DNA from: a virus
Taxonomy: Duplodnaviria; Heunggongvirae; Uroviricota; Caudoviricetes
Reading direction: 5' to 3' (one strand)
Virus record (IMG/VR): IMGVR_UViG_2663763227_000016
Length of the DNA: 23,508 nt
Shown in pieces: positions 1,422 to 16,673 of this stretch. A program made the translations under genes and the position numbers. Under the pieces are notes generated by a model. The model saw only the letters and a program-made list of their open reading frames with translations, made no database searches and was not told the origin of the DNA. Every line of letters starts with the position of its first letter. Position 1 is the stretch's first letter.

Positions 1422-3893
1422 TTAAAAATCAGCCTGATTCGGGATCAGTTTTTGCCAGATAGCTGAAACGTATTTTGCCTGGTAACGGGCATCATCCAGC
1501 GCATTGTGGCGCTCACCTTCGAATGGGATAGCAGTTCTGGCATCGAAGTCTACGGCTTTCCCCAGCTCAACGATTGTGCGTACATCGCGATCGTTGCAGT
1601 AGCGCCACGGGCAGGGGATACCCTGTCGTTCGTATGAACGGCGCAAAATCGTGTTGTCGAAGTTGGCCCCATTACCCCAGACCTGAACAAAAAACTCACC
1701 GGAGTTTTCGTCGATAAATTCCCGCAATTGCAGTAGTGCATCATCTAACGGGATTTCATCGGTCATAATGGCAGACTGCGCTTCACGTGATTGCTTCAGC
1801 CACCATTTAATGACGTCACGATCAATGACTCCGCCAGCAGTATCCAGATCGATGGTCTTGCTAAATTCTGGTCCCATATCTCCGGTTTGCGGATCGAAAA
1901 ATATTGCGCCTATTGAGATAATCGGGGCATCGGGATTTTTTCCCATGGTTTCAAGGTCGATCATCAGATGAATCCCCGCTCTGCTGGTGGATGTGAGATT
2001 ATGATGACTGTTCGCCTTAATTAAGGGATCTGACGCCTCGCCAGTTTCACTATCGCTGGCATGATGCTGATTGCCGCCAGTGTTCTCCTTGTGCTGATGT
2101 GCAGTACCTTCCATTTCCTCCGGATCATTTTCCTGAACTTCAGGCTGATTCTCTTCATCGAATATTTCCTGGTATGTTGCGTCGCCCATCACCGCGCCAC
2201 AATCAGGGCAGTTGCCGCCGCCGGTCTGACCGCAGGCGGTGCAGACTTTTTCCGGTTCCTGTTGCGCCACTGGTTCAGGCTGTTTCGTTTCTGGCTCGTT
2301 TTGTAACGCATTTGGGCTGTTTTGTTCCGCTTTCTGGTCGTTCTGTTCCGTTTCTTGCTGGTTCTGGTTCACAGAATCGCGGGTTTCAATCCCCTTCACC
2401 CATTTCGGATCATTCGGGTCGCTAATCCCTGCAACAAATTCACCACGTGATGCGGCGAGCAACTGATTGGCGTCAGGCTGGCTGATATTGGCTGCCTGCA
2501 TAATTTTCTTTACTTCGTCAGCGGTAACTTTTACCGGTTCTGGTTGTTCAGAATTTTGTGCGGTATTTGCATTTTGCGGTAAGCCTGTGTATGTGCCATT
2601 TTTTCGGGCAAAATATTCTTCTTTTGTGATTTCAGTAGCCCCGGCAGCCAGCGCCTTATCCAGACCAGAAAGTTTGTTTGCGCGACCGTATTTTTCGCAA
2701 TCCTTGTCGGTGAAGAAGAAGTAGAACGGCCCCTCACGCTCTACAGATGGTTCGACTTCCACTTTGCATTCGGTTTTTTCGTTGTCCGGAATTGCCGTTT
2801 CCACTGCATCAGTTTCTGGTACTGGCGACGAGAGAGTGTCAGTTGCGCTCTGATTTGTTCCTTCATCTTCAAACACGCCCTTTGTAGTCAGGTATTCAGT
2901 AATGTATTTGTTCAGTGCCACAGGGTCTTTGTGAATGTCGATCGGACGTTCACGGACAAGGCCAAAAATAGTCTGGCGGTCGTAGCGAAGGGCATCAGGC
3001 TGTTTGCGCATTGATGCCGAGATACGCTTCCAGTCTTCGCGGTCGTTGTCGATAACTTCATTTTTTGCCCAGCGATGGATGCTGCCGTCAATGTTTCCGG
3101 CATCCACATCACCAGGCCAGAGAGCGTAGGCCAGTTCGTCATCCAGTGTTTTCCATGTCTGCTTATATTCGCGACGAATGACTGCAGTGACAGGGGGGAT
3201 TTTTTCTGCTGAGTTTTCAGTGTGCTGTCGGTGGACTCTGGCGCGGGCGAGATCAACAACAGACGTGTATTTTCCGGTTTCCTTGCGTTCACCTTCGCGA
3301 CGTTTTTTCCAGATGCGCATCTCTGCCTGAATTTCGGGCCATTTGGCACCAGGCTTACATTTATGCTTAACCCACCCGATGGCATGCAGCTTAAGCTCCG
3401 GATACATGGCGTTAACTTCTGGCATTTTCATCAACGCTTCAACGATATGTCCGTCGAATGTTGCCATGTCTTCCTGCAACAATTCCTGCGCGCTAATCAC
3501 CATATCAACGGTGATGTTTTCACATGTGTCGAACTTAACCATGACAGCGTTCTGTACTTCAGGGGCCAGCTTGTCAAAAGCGACGTTCATCGGATCTGAT
3601 TCAGTCTCAACCGGGACAAAGGAAGTAGCCCCCTCATCCCAGCGGTTTTCCTGCATATATTCAGCATCCCATGAATCGAGGGCAGGGCGGGGTATACCGG
3701 GTTTATCCTCGCAAACAAGAAATTTATAAGCGCAGTCCTGAGCAGCCGGATAATGCTCCAGGAATTGCCAGTGAAATTTTGCGCGGGCGCGACGTTCATC
3801 ACCGGCTTCAATGGCAGTGGCTACAGCGACTGCACCTTCTTCCTTTATTGCCTGTTCGTCCGGAATGGCGGCGCAAATAAAGACTTTACTCAT
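1422..3893 (-). CDS. Large phage exonuclease with a C-terminal DnaQ-like (DEDDh) 3'-5' exonuclease domain
   Basis: 823-aa ORF with GAGG ribosome-binding site 9 nt upstream of the ATG at 3893. The C-terminal third carries Exo I/II/III-like motifs (MIDLETMG, WGNGANFDNTIL, HNALDDARYQAKY). A central acidic Q/E/N/P-rich linker contains a CxxC...CxxC element. K-12 ydfE is probably an N-terminal fragment of this family. Confidence 0.75.
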   Translation of the reverse strand: MSKVFICAAIPDEQAIKEEGAVAVATAIEAGDERRARAKFHWQFLEHYPAAQDCAYKFLVCEDKPGIPRPALDSWDAEYMQENRWDEGATSFVPVETESDPMNVAFDKLAPEVQNAVMVKFDTCENITVDMVISAQELLQEDMATFDGHIVEALMKMPEVNAMYPELKLHAIGWVKHKCKPGAKWPEIQAEMRIWKKRREGERKETGKYTSVVDLARARVHRQHTENSAEKIPPVTAVIRREYKQTWKTLDDELAYALWPGDVDAGNIDGSIHRWAKNEVIDNDREDWKRISASMRKQPDALRYDRQTIFGLVRERPIDIHKDPVALNKYITEYLTTKGVFEDEGTNQSATDTLSSPVPETDAVETAIPDNEKTECKVEVEPSVEREGPFYFFFTDKDCEKYGRANKLSGLDKALAAGATEITKEEYFARKNGTYTGLPQNANTAQNSEQPEPVKVTADEVKKIMQAANISQPDANQLLAASRGEFVAGISDPNDPKWVKGIETRDSVNQNQQETEQNDQKAEQNSPNALQNEPETKQPEPVAQQEPEKVCTACGQTGGGNCPDCGAVMGDATYQEIFDEENQPEVQENDPEEMEGTAHQHKENTGGNQHHASDSETGEASDPLIKANSHHNLTSTSRAGIHLMIDLETMGKNPDAPIISIGAIFFDPQTGDMGPEFSKTIDLDTAGGVIDRDVIKWWLKQSREAQSAIMTDEIPLDDALLQLREFIDENSGEFFVQVWGNGANFDNTILRRSYERQGIPCPWRYCNDRDVRTIVELGKAVDFDARTAIPFEGERHNALDDARYQAKYVSAIWQKLIPNQADF

Positions 3894-3985
3894 TTTGTTT
3901 TACCTCATTACAGATTTAAGGGTGAACAAATCCCTGCCATTGCTGGCATATAAGAATGAAATCGGATGTTTATTACGGAACTGTT

Positions 3986-4177
3986 TTAAAGACCTGCCGG
4001 GATTTCGCTATTATCCTGGTGAATAACTTTATCGACAGGGTAACAGTTACCGGGAATTTTCTGTTCGGTTGCTGCAGTCACACACTCCTGCATTGTCCTG
4101 TGAACACTGACTGCAATATCAACTGGCTCTCCGGAAACAAGAAAAACTGTCAGAACAAGTGCAAATGCTGTATTCAT
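3986..4177 (-). CDS. ydfD: YdfD-like small membrane protein (reported prophage lysis protein)
   Basis: 63-aa ORF (MNTAFALVLTVFLVSGEP...) with a hydrophobic N-terminus. Its ATG overlaps the dicB stop in an ATGA junction (4174-4177), indicating translational coupling. Gene order matches dicB-ydfD of the K-12 Qin prophage. Confidence 0.65.
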   Translation of the reverse strand: MNTAFALVLTVFLVSGEPVDIAVSVHRTMQECVTAATEQKIPGNCYPVDKVIHQDNSEIPAGL

Positions 4178-4362
4178 TGCCAGCATCCTTTTTGTATCGG
4201 TCGTAAACGGGCCAGCATTGAAAGAATGCATATTTTATTTAATAACTCCCGTTCGTGTTTTCTCTTGTTAATGGCATCTTCAGTAAATACAGGGTTACTG
4301 ATAGTGACACCAATTTCAAAACAACCTTCAGACGTATTAACGTTTGGTAATAACGTTTCCAT
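4174..4362 (-). CDS. dicB: Cell division inhibitor DicB
   Basis: 62-aa ORF METLLPNVNTSEGCFEIGVTISNPVFTEDAINKRKHERELLNKICILSMLARLRPIQKGCWQ, which I recognise as DicB. GAGGA lies 7 nt upstream of the ATG at 4362, and the gene sits directly downstream of the DicF sequence. Confidence 0.85.
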   Translation of the reverse strand: METLLPNVNTSEGCFEIGVTISNPVFTEDAINKRKHERELLNKICILSMLARLRPIQKGCWQ

Positions 4363-4528
4363 TATCGCGTCCTCAACAATGAATTTTGTGATGCGGTGCC
4401 TGGTGCCTCCAGGTGACGTTAACCAGTTAACAATTAACGCCGGATACAGAGAATCCACCCATAACACTGTTTTTGGTTTTAACTGTTCCGCGTGCGCTTA
4501 GCCGCATTCACTGCATCACAAAATTCAC

Positions 4529-4586
4529 TTTAAAAAGGGTGGCAGAGCAGTCACGGAGTAGAACTGATGCCACCAAAGACTACACA
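4529..4586 (-). ncRNA. dicF: DicF small regulatory RNA (ftsZ-targeting), processed from the operon transcript
   Basis: The minus strand reads ...GTAGTCTTTGGTGGCATCAGTTCTACTCCGTGACTGCTCTGCCACCCTTTTTAAAG, nearly identical to my recollection of K-12 DicF. It has the long-range stem GGTGGCA/TGCCACC followed by a U-run. Ends are approximate (+/-5 nt). Confidence 0.8.
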
Positions 4587-4911
4587 TGGATATTGTGGCG
4601 GGGCTGTCACTTAAGCGTATGGTCAGCCTGACAACCCGGTGTCCTCAAGGGGAAGGAATAACCCCGCCATACTTACCGCCGCGCCATTTCGCGGATTGCC
4701 ACAACCGGAAGCGCACGGTCGAATTAAATTTAACGACAAAGTACAGAGAGACGAGCTTCTCCGTGTGCTTTCGCGTTATGCTCTGACTTTTCAGAGAAAT
4801 ATCCTTTCAGTAAACTGTCAGTGCCGGATGTTCACCCGTGTCCGGCGCACGCACTCCACTTCACCCGTGGAGAACTCCTTAATTACCAACCTTAGCTTCG
4901 TTGGTTAGCTA

Positions 4912-5130
4912 TTAACGCGGGTATGTAATCATTCTGGCAATGCTTAATGCCGCTGCTTTTTCCAGATTGGTGATATCCTGCTCCAGAGCGGACAGATTTT
5001 CAGCCTGCTTAGCCCTGGCTTCATTGGCCCATTTCAGATCCTGCGCTGCATTAATTTTCTGGCGCATCCACTCATAAAGTTCATCATCGGTATAGTCTGG
5101 CGCGATGATGACGGGTTCTCGTTTCTGCAT
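4912..5130 (-). CDS. YdfC-like hypothetical protein (first clear gene of the dicB-type operon)
   Basis: 72-aa ORF with a strong AGGAG ribosome-binding site 5 nt upstream of the ATG at 5130. Length and position match ydfC of Qin; identity is from position only. Confidence 0.6.
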   Translation of the reverse strand: MQKREPVIIAPDYTDDELYEWMRQKINAAQDLKWANEARAKQAENLSALEQDITNLEKAAALSIARMITYPR

Positions 5131-5201
5131 GTCGGCTCCTTGTGGTTAGCGTTGCCTGCTTTTAACCACGTCAGGCGAGGTGGTATCCTCTGAGGGGTCT
5201 G

Positions 5202-5558
5202 TTACTCGAGAGGAAATTGGTTATGAGTACAATCAAGTTTTCTTGCCCAGAATGTGGTGGCGAAGTCTTTGACACATCCTTTAAGCCGCAGGGCTCTGAC
5301 AGTTTCGCGGGAGCCATCTGCAAAAATTGTGGTCACCTTGTAACTGAAGATGAGTCCTCGCAGTTCGATGACGAAATCGTTGACAATATCTTCGGTGCAC
5401 TCACCAGAGACTTTCTGAAGTAAAGGCGCATACCGCTTAGTTACCGCTCTGATAATTCTTACCTGTCCGGCAATGGCGCTGATGTCAATATAAAGCGCCA
5501 TTGCTGCTTCTTTGCCGATCCCGGGATGCCTTCCATTCTGATGTTTGACTTCGCCCAC
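5202..5558 (-). CDS. Hypothetical protein, possibly the ydfA/ydfB-equivalent of the dicB-type operon (alternative to the plus-strand zinc-ribbon ORF)
   Basis: 118-aa ORF starting at GTG 5558 with GAGGA 7 nt upstream, in the operon orientation. It sits in the codon-aligned antisense frame of a plausible plus-strand gene, which often stays open artefactually. Confidence 0.3.
   Translation of the reverse strand: MGEVKHQNGRHPGIGKEAAMALYIDISAIAGQVRIIRAVTKRYAPLLQKVSGECTEDIVNDFVIELRGLIFSYKVTTIFADGSRETVRALRLKGCVKDFATTFWARKLDCTHNQFPLE
5223..5423 (+). CDS. Putative small zinc-ribbon protein (CPECGG-x18-CKNCG), antisense to the early left operon
   Basis: 66-aa ORF with GAGAGGAA 7 nt upstream of the ATG, paired CxxC motifs, an acidic C-terminus and ordinary E. 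coli codon choice. It conflicts with the in-register minus-strand ORF 5202-5558; only one of the two is likely real. Confidence 0.4.
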   Translation: MSTIKFSCPECGGEVFDTSFKPQGSDSFAGAICKNCGHLVTEDESSQFDDEIVDNIFGALTRDFLK

Positions 5559-5739
5559 TGAGAAATCCTCTGTTTCCCCTTAACGCCGGGGTAGCGGAAC
5601 AAAAACCTGCTGCATAGTTATTAAAGTTGAACCCTGCCGTCATGTTCTTACGCCTCGGGCTGGCTACTTAACCCCTGACCACTGCTTGGTAACTCGAAGT
5701 ATTGCCCTGCATTCTGTGGGGCGGGGTGGGTGGCAGGTA

Positions 5740-5790
5740 TATAATGTACTTTGCGTTCATTGTTGTAAAGTACTTTTAGTACATTTTGTG
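5740..5790. promoter_or_regulatory. Candidate repressor operator / early-left promoter region (ATGTACT and inverted AGTACAT motifs)
   Basis: ATGTACT at 5744-5750 and its reverse complement at 5779-5785 within AAAGTACTTTTAGTACATTT, overlapping a TATATAAT box. The same 7-mer recurs twice in the repressor/cro intergenic region. Confidence 0.4.
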
Positions 5791-5859: not shown

Positions 5860-6279
5860 TTAAGAGGCTTTTTGTTTTTTCTTTCGTGCTAACTCTTCGT
5901 AAATTGCATTGTACTTCTGTTTTTTCTCTTCAAGAGTTTTTAAAAGTTCATCTGTCTCACTGTCAGGGAGCTCGTCCAGAAGGTCAATGATGATTTTTTG
6001 TCTTGGATTTAACTCCTGATAGAAACGTACCTGTCCACTTTCTTCTGTATCCTCTCCCAAAAGATAGGTTGGTGTTGTTCCTATTAGTGTTGCTAATTCC
6101 CTTAATTTCTCCCGGCGAGGAATTGTTTCGCCATTAAACCATTTGCTAACCGCTTTTGGTGTTAATTTCATTCGACGGGCAATTTCTGCCTGCCTTCCAT
6201 GTTGTTCATAACCAGCGTTTTCACAGGCTAGCGCAAGCCTACTGGCGAACTCTTTACGCGCTTTATCTTCATGAACCAT
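5860..6279 (-). CDS. Prophage repressor, XRE-family HTH (DicA/RacR-like, CI analogue)
   Basis: 139-aa ORF with an N-terminal helix-turn-helix (QAEIARRMKLTPKAVSKWFNGETIP) and an acidic/coiled C-terminal domain (LLDELPDSETDELLKTLEEKK). It is divergent from a Cro-like gene across an 80-bp intergenic region containing repeated ATGTACT motifs. Confidence 0.8.
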   Translation of the reverse strand: MVHEDKARKEFASRLALACENAGYEQHGRQAEIARRMKLTPKAVSKWFNGETIPRREKLRELATLIGTTPTYLLGEDTEESGQVRFYQELNPRQKIIIDLLDELPDSETDELLKTLEEKKQKYNAIYEELARKKKQKAS

Positions 6280-6358
6280 AAGTTCAATGATATTCGCTCT
6301 TGAATGTACTGTCAGTTCTGTTATAGCATGTACTCAAAGTTCACATTGTGAGGGTGAT
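6280..6358. promoter_or_regulatory. Divergent promoter/operator region between the repressor and the Cro-like gene
   Basis: 80-bp intergenic region carrying two direct copies of ATGTACT (6304-6310 and 6328-6334). Confidence 0.45.
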
Positions 6359-10846: not shown

Positions 10847-11083
10847 TTTTATGGATCACCTTTCTGATTGATTTCATATTGGCGAGGTGACGTGAGTTAA
10901 GTAGAATGGCTGCGGGTGCTTGAGGCTATCTGTCTCAGGCATGAACACTGAAAGGCAGATAGAGAAAAGCCCCAGTTAACATTTCGCGTCCTGCAAGACG
11001 CTTAACATTAATCTGAGGCCCAATCTATGTCTCACAAATGTAGGTTAGCCTCTTACGTGCCGAAAGGCAAGGGGAAGCAGGCT

Positions 11084-11239
11084 ATGAAGCAGCAAAAGGC
11101 GATGTTAATCGCCCTGATCGTCATCTGTTTAACCGTCATAGTGACGGCACTGGTAACGAGGAAAGACCTCTGCGAGGTACGACTCCGAACCGGCCAGACG
11201 GAGGTCGCTGTCTTCACAGCTTACGAACCTGAGGAGTAA
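11084..11239 (+). CDS. hokD: Hok/Gef-family type I toxin (HokD/RelF-like)
   Basis: 51-aa ORF MKQQKAMLIALIVICLTVIVTALVTRKDLCEVRLRTGQTEVAVFTAYEPEE, near-identical to Gef/RelF as I recall them. GGGGAAG ribosome-binding site; an in-frame upstream extension (from 11027) resembles a mok-type leader. Confidence 0.85.
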   Translation: MKQQKAMLIALIVICLTVIVTALVTRKDLCEVRLRTGQTEVAVFTAYEPEE

Positions 11240-15449: not shown

Positions 15450-15525
15450 GGCCCTTTAGCTCAGTGGTGAGAGCGAGCGACTCATAATCGCCAGGTCGCT
15501 GGTTCAAATCCAGCAAGGGCCACCA
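15450..15525 (+). tRNA. tRNA with CAU anticodon (Ile2-lysidine type or Met; ileZ-like)
   Basis: Manual cloverleaf: acceptor GGCCCTT/AAGGGCC, D-arm GCTC-AGTGGTGA-GAGC, anticodon loop CTCATAA, T-arm GCTGG-TTCAAAT-CCAGC, encoded CCA. Confidence 0.85.
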
Positions 15526-15532
15526 TCACATA

Positions 15533-15609
15533 CCGCCATTAGCTCATCAGGAAAGAGCGCCAGCTTTCGAAGCTGGTTGCGCGGAGTTCGGGTCCCCGAA
15601 GGCGGTCCA
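15533..15609 (+). tRNA. Possible tRNA-Arg (anticodon UCG), degenerate or pseudo-tRNA
   Basis: Manual fold: D-arm GCTC-ATCAGGAAA-GAGC, perfect anticodon stem CCAGC/GCTGG with loop TTTCGAA, encoded CCA. It has mismatches in the acceptor and T stems, a non-canonical T-loop (TTCGGGT) and starts with C. Confidence 0.45.
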
Positions 15610-15622
15610 TTATCTGTATCCT

Positions 15623-15699
15623 GCGTTGTTAGCTCAGCCGGACAGAGCAATTGCCTTCTAAGCAATCGGTCACTGGTTCGAATCCAGTACAACGCGCCA
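15623..15699 (+). tRNA. tRNA-Arg (anticodon UCU, reads AGA)
   Basis: Canonical cloverleaf: acceptor GCGTTGT/ACAACGC, D-arm GCTC-AGCCGGACA-GAGC, anticodon stem ATTGC/GCAAT with loop CTTCTAA, T-arm ACTGG-TTCGAAT-CCAGT, encoded CCA. Confidence 0.9.
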
Positions 15700-15743: not shown

Positions 15744-15958
15744 CTCACAATTCAGGCGGTTGACTGTTGTCTGGTTTGCGGGGAGTTTGTTAAAAGAAAC
15801 TGGCATGGTGAATCCCCCTGTGCGGAGGGGCAATCAGCGAGTAGGTATATGGGATAATCGCGGATTCAGGTGCTGGTACTGAATTCACCGGGAGGCACCC
15901 GGCACCATGCAATGGCACATAGCGCCACTCTCCAGCCCCTCTCCGGAGGGGCTTTTCT
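15744..15958 (+). repeat. Structured non-coding module, copy A (TTGACT box, two hairpins, terminator-like GCCCCTC-TCCG-GAGGGGC-TTTT)
   Basis: Shares with copy B, at a 468-bp offset, the blocks CTCACAATTCAG, CATGGTGAATCCCCCTG.GCGGAGGGGC, CACCGGGAGGCACCCGGCACCATG and CCCCTCTCCGGAGGGGCTTT. Confidence 0.6.
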
Positions 15959-16147
15959 GTGCCGGATACATCACAGTTTCTGGAACCTTAGGTACTACAG
16001 TATCAGTCAGGGTGCTATATTTTCAGATGTGATGAAAGCCTGTCAGCAGGCAGGGCGTATCGGAAATGACCCAGTAGAGAAAACGTTGACTCAGATACCG
16101 GTGCTGAGTTACCGGGAAACCGGCATCACATGACCGCTATCCTTCCA

Positions 16148-16174
16148 GGCCCATCCGCTCCGGTGGGCCTTTTT
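16148..16174 (+). terminator. Terminator-like hairpin between the two repeat modules
   Basis: GGCCCA-(10-nt loop)-TGGGCC followed by TTTTT. Confidence 0.5.
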
Positions 16175-16211
16175 ACTGCAGAAAACAGGTTCCCCGTTAA
16201 ATGCTATGTTG

Positions 16212-16444
16212 CTCACAATTCAGTAAGTTGACAGTTGCCTGTCAGACTGGGCATTTGTTAAAAAAATTTCGCATGGTGAATCCCCCTGAGCGGAGGGGCG
16301 ACTGGTGACGGTATAATCTCTGATTATCAAAACGAGAATGACGCGGGTTTAGTGGCACCGGGCTGAACTCACCGGGAGGCACCCGGCACCATGTGCATGA
16401 TGATACAGATACGCGGCTTTAGCCCCTCTCCGGAGGGGCTTTCT
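16212..16444 (+). repeat. Structured non-coding module, copy B (TTGACA box, GGTATAAT, hairpins, terminator-like hairpin)
   Basis: Diverged tandem copy of module A. It contains TTGACA (16229-16234) and a consensus-like TATAAT (16309-16314). Confidence 0.6.
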
Positions 16445-16673
16445 TATGGACAAAAAAAGCCCGCGCTGGGAGACGCGGGCGGCAAGGAATAAACAATAAA
16501 ACGTGAAGTAATATTTCAGCTGGCGAATAATACCCCATAGTAATCACTCTGCGCAACTGCGCGGTCTTTTTCGAATTGCGGGCTGTAGTCTCCCTTCTGC
16601 CATTGTCCTGTAACTTCCGGACTTCAGCCTGCTCCTTATCTGACTCACAACATTATCCCGCCCGGGAGGATTC

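Follow-up and report, generated by a model that had tools for sequence, protein, structure and literature searches.

An intact dicBF cell-division-inhibition cassette, very probably in the early-left operon of an ompW-type lambdoid prophage, carries a minority allele of DicF

In the Qin prophage of Escherichia coli K-12, the dicBF cassette is a textbook cell-division-inhibition system and one of the oldest known pairs of a prophage small RNA (sRNA) and a protein. The annotated order in MG1655 is ydfC, 340 nucleotides, dicF, 174 nucleotides, dicB, ydfD (with a 4-nucleotide overlap) and ydfE. The sRNA DicF is made there by processing: RNase III yields an intermediate of 190 nucleotides, RNase E creates the mature 5′ end of the 53-nucleotide form, and there is no internal promoter (bioRxiv 10.1101/2023.04.14.536235; for the two enzymes see also PMC5069750). 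Its 3′ end is set by intrinsic termination or, for a form of 72 nucleotides, by RNase III cleavage (PMC5069750; PMC9438474). Published K-12 mutants assign control of ftsZ to the 3′ part of DicF and control of xylR to the 5′ part; the 5′ mutant DicF3 is in addition much less toxic and no longer controls pykA. Several prophage backbones have been reported to carry the cassette, of which O157:H7 has multiple copies (PMC5069750; PMC7873438). Here we compare these systems with the corresponding region of the viral record IMGVR_UViG_2663763227_000016 (Caudoviricetes), a stretch of 23,508 nucleotides referred to below as the window. Very probably, the window contains an intact dicBF cassette, placed within the early-left operon of an ompW-integrating type of lambdoid prophage.

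The cassette lies on the minus strand and runs, from upstream to downstream, through ydfC (4912–5130), an untranslated stretch of 323 nucleotides (4589–4911), DicF with its terminator hairpin and U tract (4532–4588), a 174-nucleotide spacer, dicB (4174–4362), ydfD (3986–4177) and an exonuclease gene (1422–3893), whose open reading frame (ORF) of 823 amino acids is followed by the excisionase and integrase genes. Alignment to the Qin dicB operon, which the initial annotation had suggested as a check, gave the same order and spacing with 96% nucleotide identity across the whole region. The homology was unbroken from 5130, the start of ydfC, to 3127, which corresponds to L001:5845 and to the edge of IS2E in K-12. 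DicF, DicB, the YdfD-like gene and the ydfC-like gene recognised in that annotation were all found on this strand, at or beside the places it had given, and DicF, DicB and YdfD are intact. The interval it had drawn, 4174–5130, holds ydfC, DicF and dicB and leaves ydfD just outside. Its description of a complete dicB-type module is right for the named elements but not in the K-12 sense, since ydfA and ydfB upstream and the DicA/DicC control at dicBp are absent.

The proteins of the cassette were assigned by profile searches and by comparison with K-12. YdfC is identical to its K-12 counterpart at all 72 residues, matches phrog_1744, and is annotated as ydfC in E. coli APEC O18. The dicB gene encodes 62 amino acids from an ATG preceded by the Shine-Dalgarno sequence GAGGA (4370–4374); a GTG-extended version of 97 amino acids also appears in the mechanical ORF list. 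DicB matched Pfam PF05358 over positions 1–62 of 62 with 127.4 bits (cutoff 27) and NCBIfam NF049927 with 132.7 bits (cutoff 100), which places it in the DicB family by full-length matches above curated cutoffs. Its reading frame is undisrupted over all 62 codons, 55 of which specify the same residue as in K-12. Among 129 DicF loci sharing the exact 3′ core of the RNA, this DicB allele was the second most common. The ydfD product, of 63 amino acids, matched PF07358 (DUF1482) with 88.3 bits (cutoff 25) and is identical to K-12 YdfD, labelled a lysis protein in RefSeq, at 59 of 63 positions. Its ATG overlaps the dicB stop codon as ATGA, in agreement with the translational coupling that had been proposed for the pair.

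For DicF, a whole-window scan matched Rfam RF00039 at 4537–4588, over model positions 1–52 of 52, with 61.1 bits (E = 2e-11), above the curated gathering score of 48. An intrinsic terminator hairpin forms its 3′ end, directly followed by a UUUUU tract at 4532–4536. The terminator stem is GGUGG/CCACC in the window and GGCGG/CCGCC in K-12, a compensatory change, which indicates that the stem has been kept. The 3′ region differs from that of K-12 by one substitution, and its part that pairs with the ribosome-binding region of ftsZ is retained, as judged by sequence conservation. At the 5′ end, about 13 nucleotides are replaced relative to K-12 and 14 nucleotides just upstream are deleted, and this is the sole strongly divergent patch in the alignment. 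The 5′ segment is variable in the Rfam consensus, so that membership of RF00039 is unaffected by the change. The DicF of the initial annotation, which would have fallen had the conserved seed and terminator been missing, thus stands in its ftsZ-pairing 3′ region and terminator; the departure of its 5′ seed from K-12 had not been remarked.

The relatives of the cassette were collected with the 1351-nucleotide region 3900–5250 as query against 5426 complete E. coli genomes. Matches were present in 4697 genomes (87%), 2708 of which had at least 80% of the query covered, and the number of copies per genome had a median of 2 and a maximum of 10. The best matches were 99.9% identical and annotated as ydfC, dicB and DUF1482/ydfD. 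At the same identity of 99.9%, the region corresponds to an annotated prophage beside ompW in APEC O18, which shares with the window the order of integrase, excisionase, exonuclease, repressor, replication genes, Q and three tRNA genes; a neighbouring gene is also common to the window and PPompW phage records. Chance would not come near this degree of agreement with K-12 and APEC O18. In a collection of one genome per species, the exact 20-nucleotide DicF core was found only in Escherichia and Shigella, plus two metagenome bins that are probably contaminated.

We then considered which DicF targets the window allele would keep. The predicted pairing with ftsZ from −24 to 0 gave −17.5 kcal/mol for the window and −16.9 kcal/mol for K-12, values not distinguishable from those of shuffled targets. 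Duplex energies were rejected as proof of targets, as the shuffled-target controls matched even the validated ftsZ site (z = −0.6 for K-12 DicF with ftsZ). Because of this, the target predictions rest on the conservation of experimentally defined nucleotides. Perfect matches of 8 nucleotides to pykA and 10 nucleotides to manX are kept in the window allele. The 5′ seed through which K-12 DicF pairs with xylR, GGUGACGUUU, is not present; the longest perfect xylR match drops from 10 to 6 nucleotides, and the pairing energy changes from −20.3 kcal/mol in K-12 to −10.7 kcal/mol, weaker than the mean of shuffled targets. The xylR interaction of K-12 DicF is thus predicted to be lost.

The altered 5′ segment is not confined to the window. 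About 95% of the 129 loci carry the K-12 type, UUUCUGGUGACGUUUGGCGG, and a minority carry the window type, CAUGUGUAGUCUUUGGUGG, together with the GGUGG/CCACC terminator stem. An allele-specific query of 54 nucleotides found the window allele in 185 of the 5426 complete genomes (3.4%), always chromosomal and at least 99% identical in 19 of them, and the allele varied by at most 1–2 changes in 54 nucleotides across these genomes. In APEC O18 it is the sole DicF copy. A published survey of dicF (PMC5069750) gathered sequences more than 99% identical to K-12, and so would not have sampled this 5′ allele. That the replaced seed has acquired a function of its own, acting on other mRNAs while the shared 3′ seed keeps control of ftsZ, is possible, although we hold it to be doubtful. 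The block-wise replacement of the 5′ end beside a retained 3′ seed and terminator would fit such a change, as would the role of the K-12 5′ end as a functional seed and source of much DicF toxicity and the stability of the allele in 3.4% of genomes, including one with no other copy. Nevertheless, the new segment pairs only at background level with the four known targets, and the Rfam consensus was already variable there, so that the change could be neutral drift or a scar of recombination.

The 323-nucleotide stretch between ydfC and DicF had been read as a possible processing precursor of about 320 nucleotides, which agrees with the published RNase III and RNase E work on K-12 and was in that respect already known. 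The untranslated region from ydfC to dicB (4363–4911) folds better than shuffled versions of itself (z = −2.94). Within the precursor stretch, a hairpin at about 4672–4721 sits, by coordinate comparison, where RNase III would make the 5′ end of the 190-nucleotide intermediate in K-12. Overall, the sequence around the K-12 processing sites is nearly identical in the window. The helices are almost invariant across loci, and the precursor shows little covariation either way.

The spacer between DicF and dicB contains a structured element (4377–4530, minus strand), whose fold consists of a 21-base-pair closing helix (arms 4509–4529 and 4378–4398), three hairpins and a centre. When 33 unique spacers were aligned, the closing helix and the three hairpins were almost invariant and the centre was hypervariable. 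A permissive scan gave the spacer a full-length match to the Rfam family STnc100 (RF02076) with 32.7 bits (E = 6e-5), below the gathering cutoff of 47, and the spacer is accordingly not filed as a member. The same family scored 165 and 136 bits at two tandem sites on the plus strand in the late region of the prophage (15774–15964 and 16242–16451). Alignment showed that the spacer and these copies share the closing helix, the first hairpin and a CCNGG-AGGCA-CCNGG hairpin, and that 12 of 37 base pairs are changed on both sides with pairing kept. In the reverse direction, a covariance model built solely from spacers found both copies with 45.5 and 44.7 bits (E of roughly 1e-10), and the next unrelated match had 13 bits. 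The shared helices, the compensatory pairs and the reciprocal match lead us to conclude that the spacer is related to the STnc100 family core. A link of STnc100/PasD to dicBF was not found in the STnc100/PasD literature searched.

The position of the closing helix suggests a role for it. By coordinate arithmetic, the 5′ arm (L001:4443–4463) takes in the 3′ end published for the 72-nucleotide DicF (L001:4454; PMC5069750), and the 3′ arm stops 4 nucleotides before the dicB Shine-Dalgarno sequence. From these two placements, the 21-base-pair helix is likely an RNase III site that parts DicF from the dicB mRNA. A resemblance of the hairpins of the spacer and STnc100 to the put antiterminator RNAs (putL and putR) of phage HK022 was also considered. 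This candidate was dropped, as the STnc100 model found nothing, with E up to 1, in HK022 from 26 to 38 kb, the segment with PL and PR.

We also weighed whether the stretches taken as untranslated encode something else, either a small protein in the 323-nucleotide stretch or an independent STnc100-like sRNA released from the spacer. Mechanical ORFs do exist on the plus strand at 4586–4786 and 4639–4908. Relative to the 340 nucleotides of K-12, however, the stretch has a 14-nucleotide deletion, a 3-nucleotide indel and a 1-nucleotide indel, which would break any ORF in it and argue against a conserved one, and RefSeq annotates nothing there in either K-12 or APEC O18. As for the spacer, its relatedness to a family described as sRNA speaks for an RNA of its own, as does the fragment of about 130 nucleotides that would be freed if RNase III cleaved the two arms of the closing helix. 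The spacer nevertheless has no counterpart of the STnc100 terminator and continues into the ribosome-binding site of dicB, and STnc100 is itself without proven function. Overall, we judge such alternative coding improbable.

Upstream of the cassette, the control region differs from that of Qin. A candidate early-left promoter, pL, lies on the minus strand at 5741–5769, directly left of the repressor gene, with a −35 element TTTACA, a 17-nucleotide spacer and a −10 element CATTAT; it came from a consensus scan with 9 of 12 matches, and such scans taken alone perform at chance level. A 15-nucleotide operator-like motif, ATGTACT-N5-GTTC, overlaps this candidate at 5744–5758 and repeats at 6304–6318 and 6328–6342, between the repressor and cro-like genes. 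The three copies, together with a related inverted pair at 5766–5785, are probably operators of the resident repressor at pL and pR/pRM. The repressor (5860–6279, minus strand) has 139 amino acids and a helix-turn-helix of the Pfam HTH_3 family, and matches the DicA family weakly (56.8 bits, cutoff 101). The cassette thus sits behind a repressor different from K-12 DicA. With such repeats in the pL region as well as the pR region, the candidate pL would be under this repressor, which is its likely controller, and the cassette would be expressed with the early-left operon on induction.

Several observations weigh against the reading of the locus as a working cassette. In DicF, the single substitution within the ftsZ-pairing region turns UUUU into UUCU, a U-to-C change. 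Because the 5′ mutant DicF3 loses pykA control, regulation of pykA by the window allele is uncertain, and duplex energies alone cannot validate any target. At the position of K-12 RNase E cleavage the sequence is changed, with the 14-nucleotide deletion just upstream, which leaves the mature 5′ end of the window allele uncertain. The long spacer helix has one A·C mismatch in the window. The promoter was called from a weak consensus (9 of 12) and the operator repeats, and an annotated gene of the opposite strand, encoding a Zn-ribbon protein, is located between pL and ydfC.

On such grounds the cassette could be silent baggage, intact in sequence and neither expressed nor processed in its different immunity region, without ydfA and ydfB and with an altered RNase E site. 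Qin homology starts exactly at the ydfC ribosome-binding site, behind which the different repressor and the opposite-strand gene take over, and the K-12 operon is itself repressed under standard conditions, as published. We nevertheless rate this explanation as quite improbable. The three ORFs, the terminator with its compensatory change and the spacer helices have been kept across many prophage contexts, the operator repeats link pL to the resident repressor, and the DicF allele persists in 185 genomes almost without change. The preferred reading remains that of an intact cassette in the early-left operon.

Under that reading, inactivation of the repressor would start transcription from pL leftward through ydfC and into the untranslated stretch, out of which RNase III and then RNase E would excise DicF. 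The 3′ end of DicF would be set either by termination at its intrinsic hairpin or by RNase III cleaving the 21-base-pair spacer helix. Transcripts reading through the terminator would encode DicB, the coupled YdfD, and then the exonuclease, excisionase and integrase. By homology with K-12, we assume that the 3′ part of DicF would pair with the ftsZ ribosome-binding region, pykA and manX and repress them, that DicB would block formation of the FtsZ ring via MinC, and that YdfD would act as a lysis protein. The identity of the elements, their intactness and arrangement, the frequency of the DicF allele and the conserved structures were observed directly, whereas the promoter, the expression, the sites of processing and every effect on targets are inferred.

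Between the candidate promoter and ydfC, a conserved leader block of 159 nucleotides (5573–5731, minus strand) lies downstream of pL. It was present in 72 of 133 DicF-bearing loci and was about 95–99% identical in nearly all of the 72, despite their differing flanks; K-12 keeps just its last 28 nucleotides, right before ydfA. The leader was rejected as a structured RNA, since it does not fold stably (z = +1.27) and nothing in Rfam matched it. A C-rich sequence (CCACCCACCCCGCCCCACA) lies in its 5′ part, and one may speculate that this is a Rho-loading site. Just upstream of ydfC, a 37-nucleotide segment (5153–5189) is 100% identical in several loci (L056, L059, L104, L115 and L127) that otherwise differ upstream, and may be a conserved leader of ydfC or the trace of a recombination joint.

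Two overlapping reading frames also lie in this interval. The Zn-ribbon gene (5223–5423, plus strand) contains the motif CPECGG...CKNCGH and matched NCBIfam ECs_2282_CxxC with 57.3 bits (cutoff 37). Antisense to it, an ORF at 5202–5558 on the minus strand, starting with GTG at 5558 or ATG at 5501, occupies the position of K-12 ydfA behind the same conserved ribosome-binding sequence; it matches phrog_21318 (E = 4e-66), and solely this PHROG, whose members are near-identical. When both candidate proteins were searched by tblastn against phage genomes, the same 14 near-identical records were returned, and analysis of substitutions gave only 3 informative sites. We lean toward the Zn-ribbon strand as the coding one, for it passes a curated NCBIfam cutoff.

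Downstream of ydfD, the exonuclease matched phrog_2082 over its full length, 1–823 of 823. An Rv2179c-like DEDD-type 3′–5′ exonuclease domain was found at residues 642–813 (220 bits), and likeness to RecE was limited to the middle of the protein, residues 452–626 (276 bits; equivalog cutoff 1269). Identity as RecE, or exodeoxyribonuclease VIII, was rejected, given this score and a catalytic domain that is Rv2179c-like and of DEDD type instead. The protein appears as a mosaic of a YdfE-like N-terminus, a RecE-like middle and, where RecE has its nuclease domain, a C-terminal Rv2179c-like domain. No recT-like partner was seen between the exonuclease gene and xis. In K-12, ydfE is an annotated pseudogene consisting of the first approximately 255 codons of the exonuclease gene and an IS2-derived tail, and since the K-12 homology stops at window position 3127, the IS2 junction, ydfE is the 5′ portion of what is a full-length gene in the window. 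The suspicion that ydfE is a fragment of this exonuclease family was thereby confirmed, with the qualification that the fragment lacks the catalytic domain.

Farther away in the prophage, three tRNA genes (15450–15696, plus strand) are followed by the tandem STnc100 copies (15774–16451). Downstream of them is a SASA-family esterase gene, known from the annotation of the near-identical prophage of APEC O18 (L002). In Stx phages, stx is located at this place, and one STnc100 copy has been placed 75 nucleotides downstream of stx2 (PMC12370729). At the corresponding site of the APEC O18 prophage no stx is annotated; the window itself was not inspected directly for stx. The prophage also has, at 10914–11089 on the plus strand, a sok antitoxin RNA (Rfam, 120.5 bits) next to a hokD-type toxin gene whose APEC O18 counterpart is annotated hokD; the two make up a type I toxin-antitoxin pair.

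As a finding, the cassette matters little, since most E. coli genomes have a match to it and near-identical records already carry its annotation. The 5′-seed allele and the relationship of the spacer to STnc100 are small additions of modest value. Only tentatively do we put forward that they are two features not yet described, namely a natural DicF allele whose swapped 5′ seed leaves control of ftsZ in place, has cost it xylR and has possibly gained it other targets, which would make it a natural counterpart of the laboratory mutant DicF3, and a spacer that belongs to the STnc100/PasD lineage of structured RNAs. Strains in which this allele is the sole dicF, such as APEC O18, offer a natural test of which DicF phenotypes need the 5′ seed. 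If the spacer does belong to the STnc100 lineage, these prophage elements may be RNase III processing cassettes, or the spacer may yield an RNA of its own. The link also gives a testable idea of a trait common to the poorly understood STnc100/PasD elements, a long helix cleaved by RNase III.

Among known systems, lambda Kil and Rac KilR are products of the early-left operon that block FtsZ-dependent division. The cassette has the same place in the phage programme; their proteins, however, are unrelated to those described here and have no sRNA partner, so that the likeness is one of functional analogy only. STnc100/PasD (RF02076) shares its structural core with the spacer, which differs in that its closing helix is much longer (21 base pairs), it lacks a terminator, and it forms part of an mRNA in which an sRNA precedes it and a coding gene follows. 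Other lambdoid prophages, in O157:H7 Sakai, EDL933 and others (Balasubramanian et al. 2016, PMC5069750), carry the same cassette in varied backbones, and the O157 copies match the window region at about 95.7%. Between ydfC and the exonuclease gene, the window agrees with the Qin dicBF operon (ydfABC-dicF-dicB-ydfDE) in the order, spacing and strand of its elements, as well as in the terminator, the spacer helices and the ATGA coupling. Qin has the ydfA, ydfB and DicA/DicC control that the window lacks, and its exonuclease gene, whole in the window, is cut by IS2. With integrase, excisionase, repressor, replication genes and Q, the prophage that surrounds the cassette here looks far less decayed than Qin.

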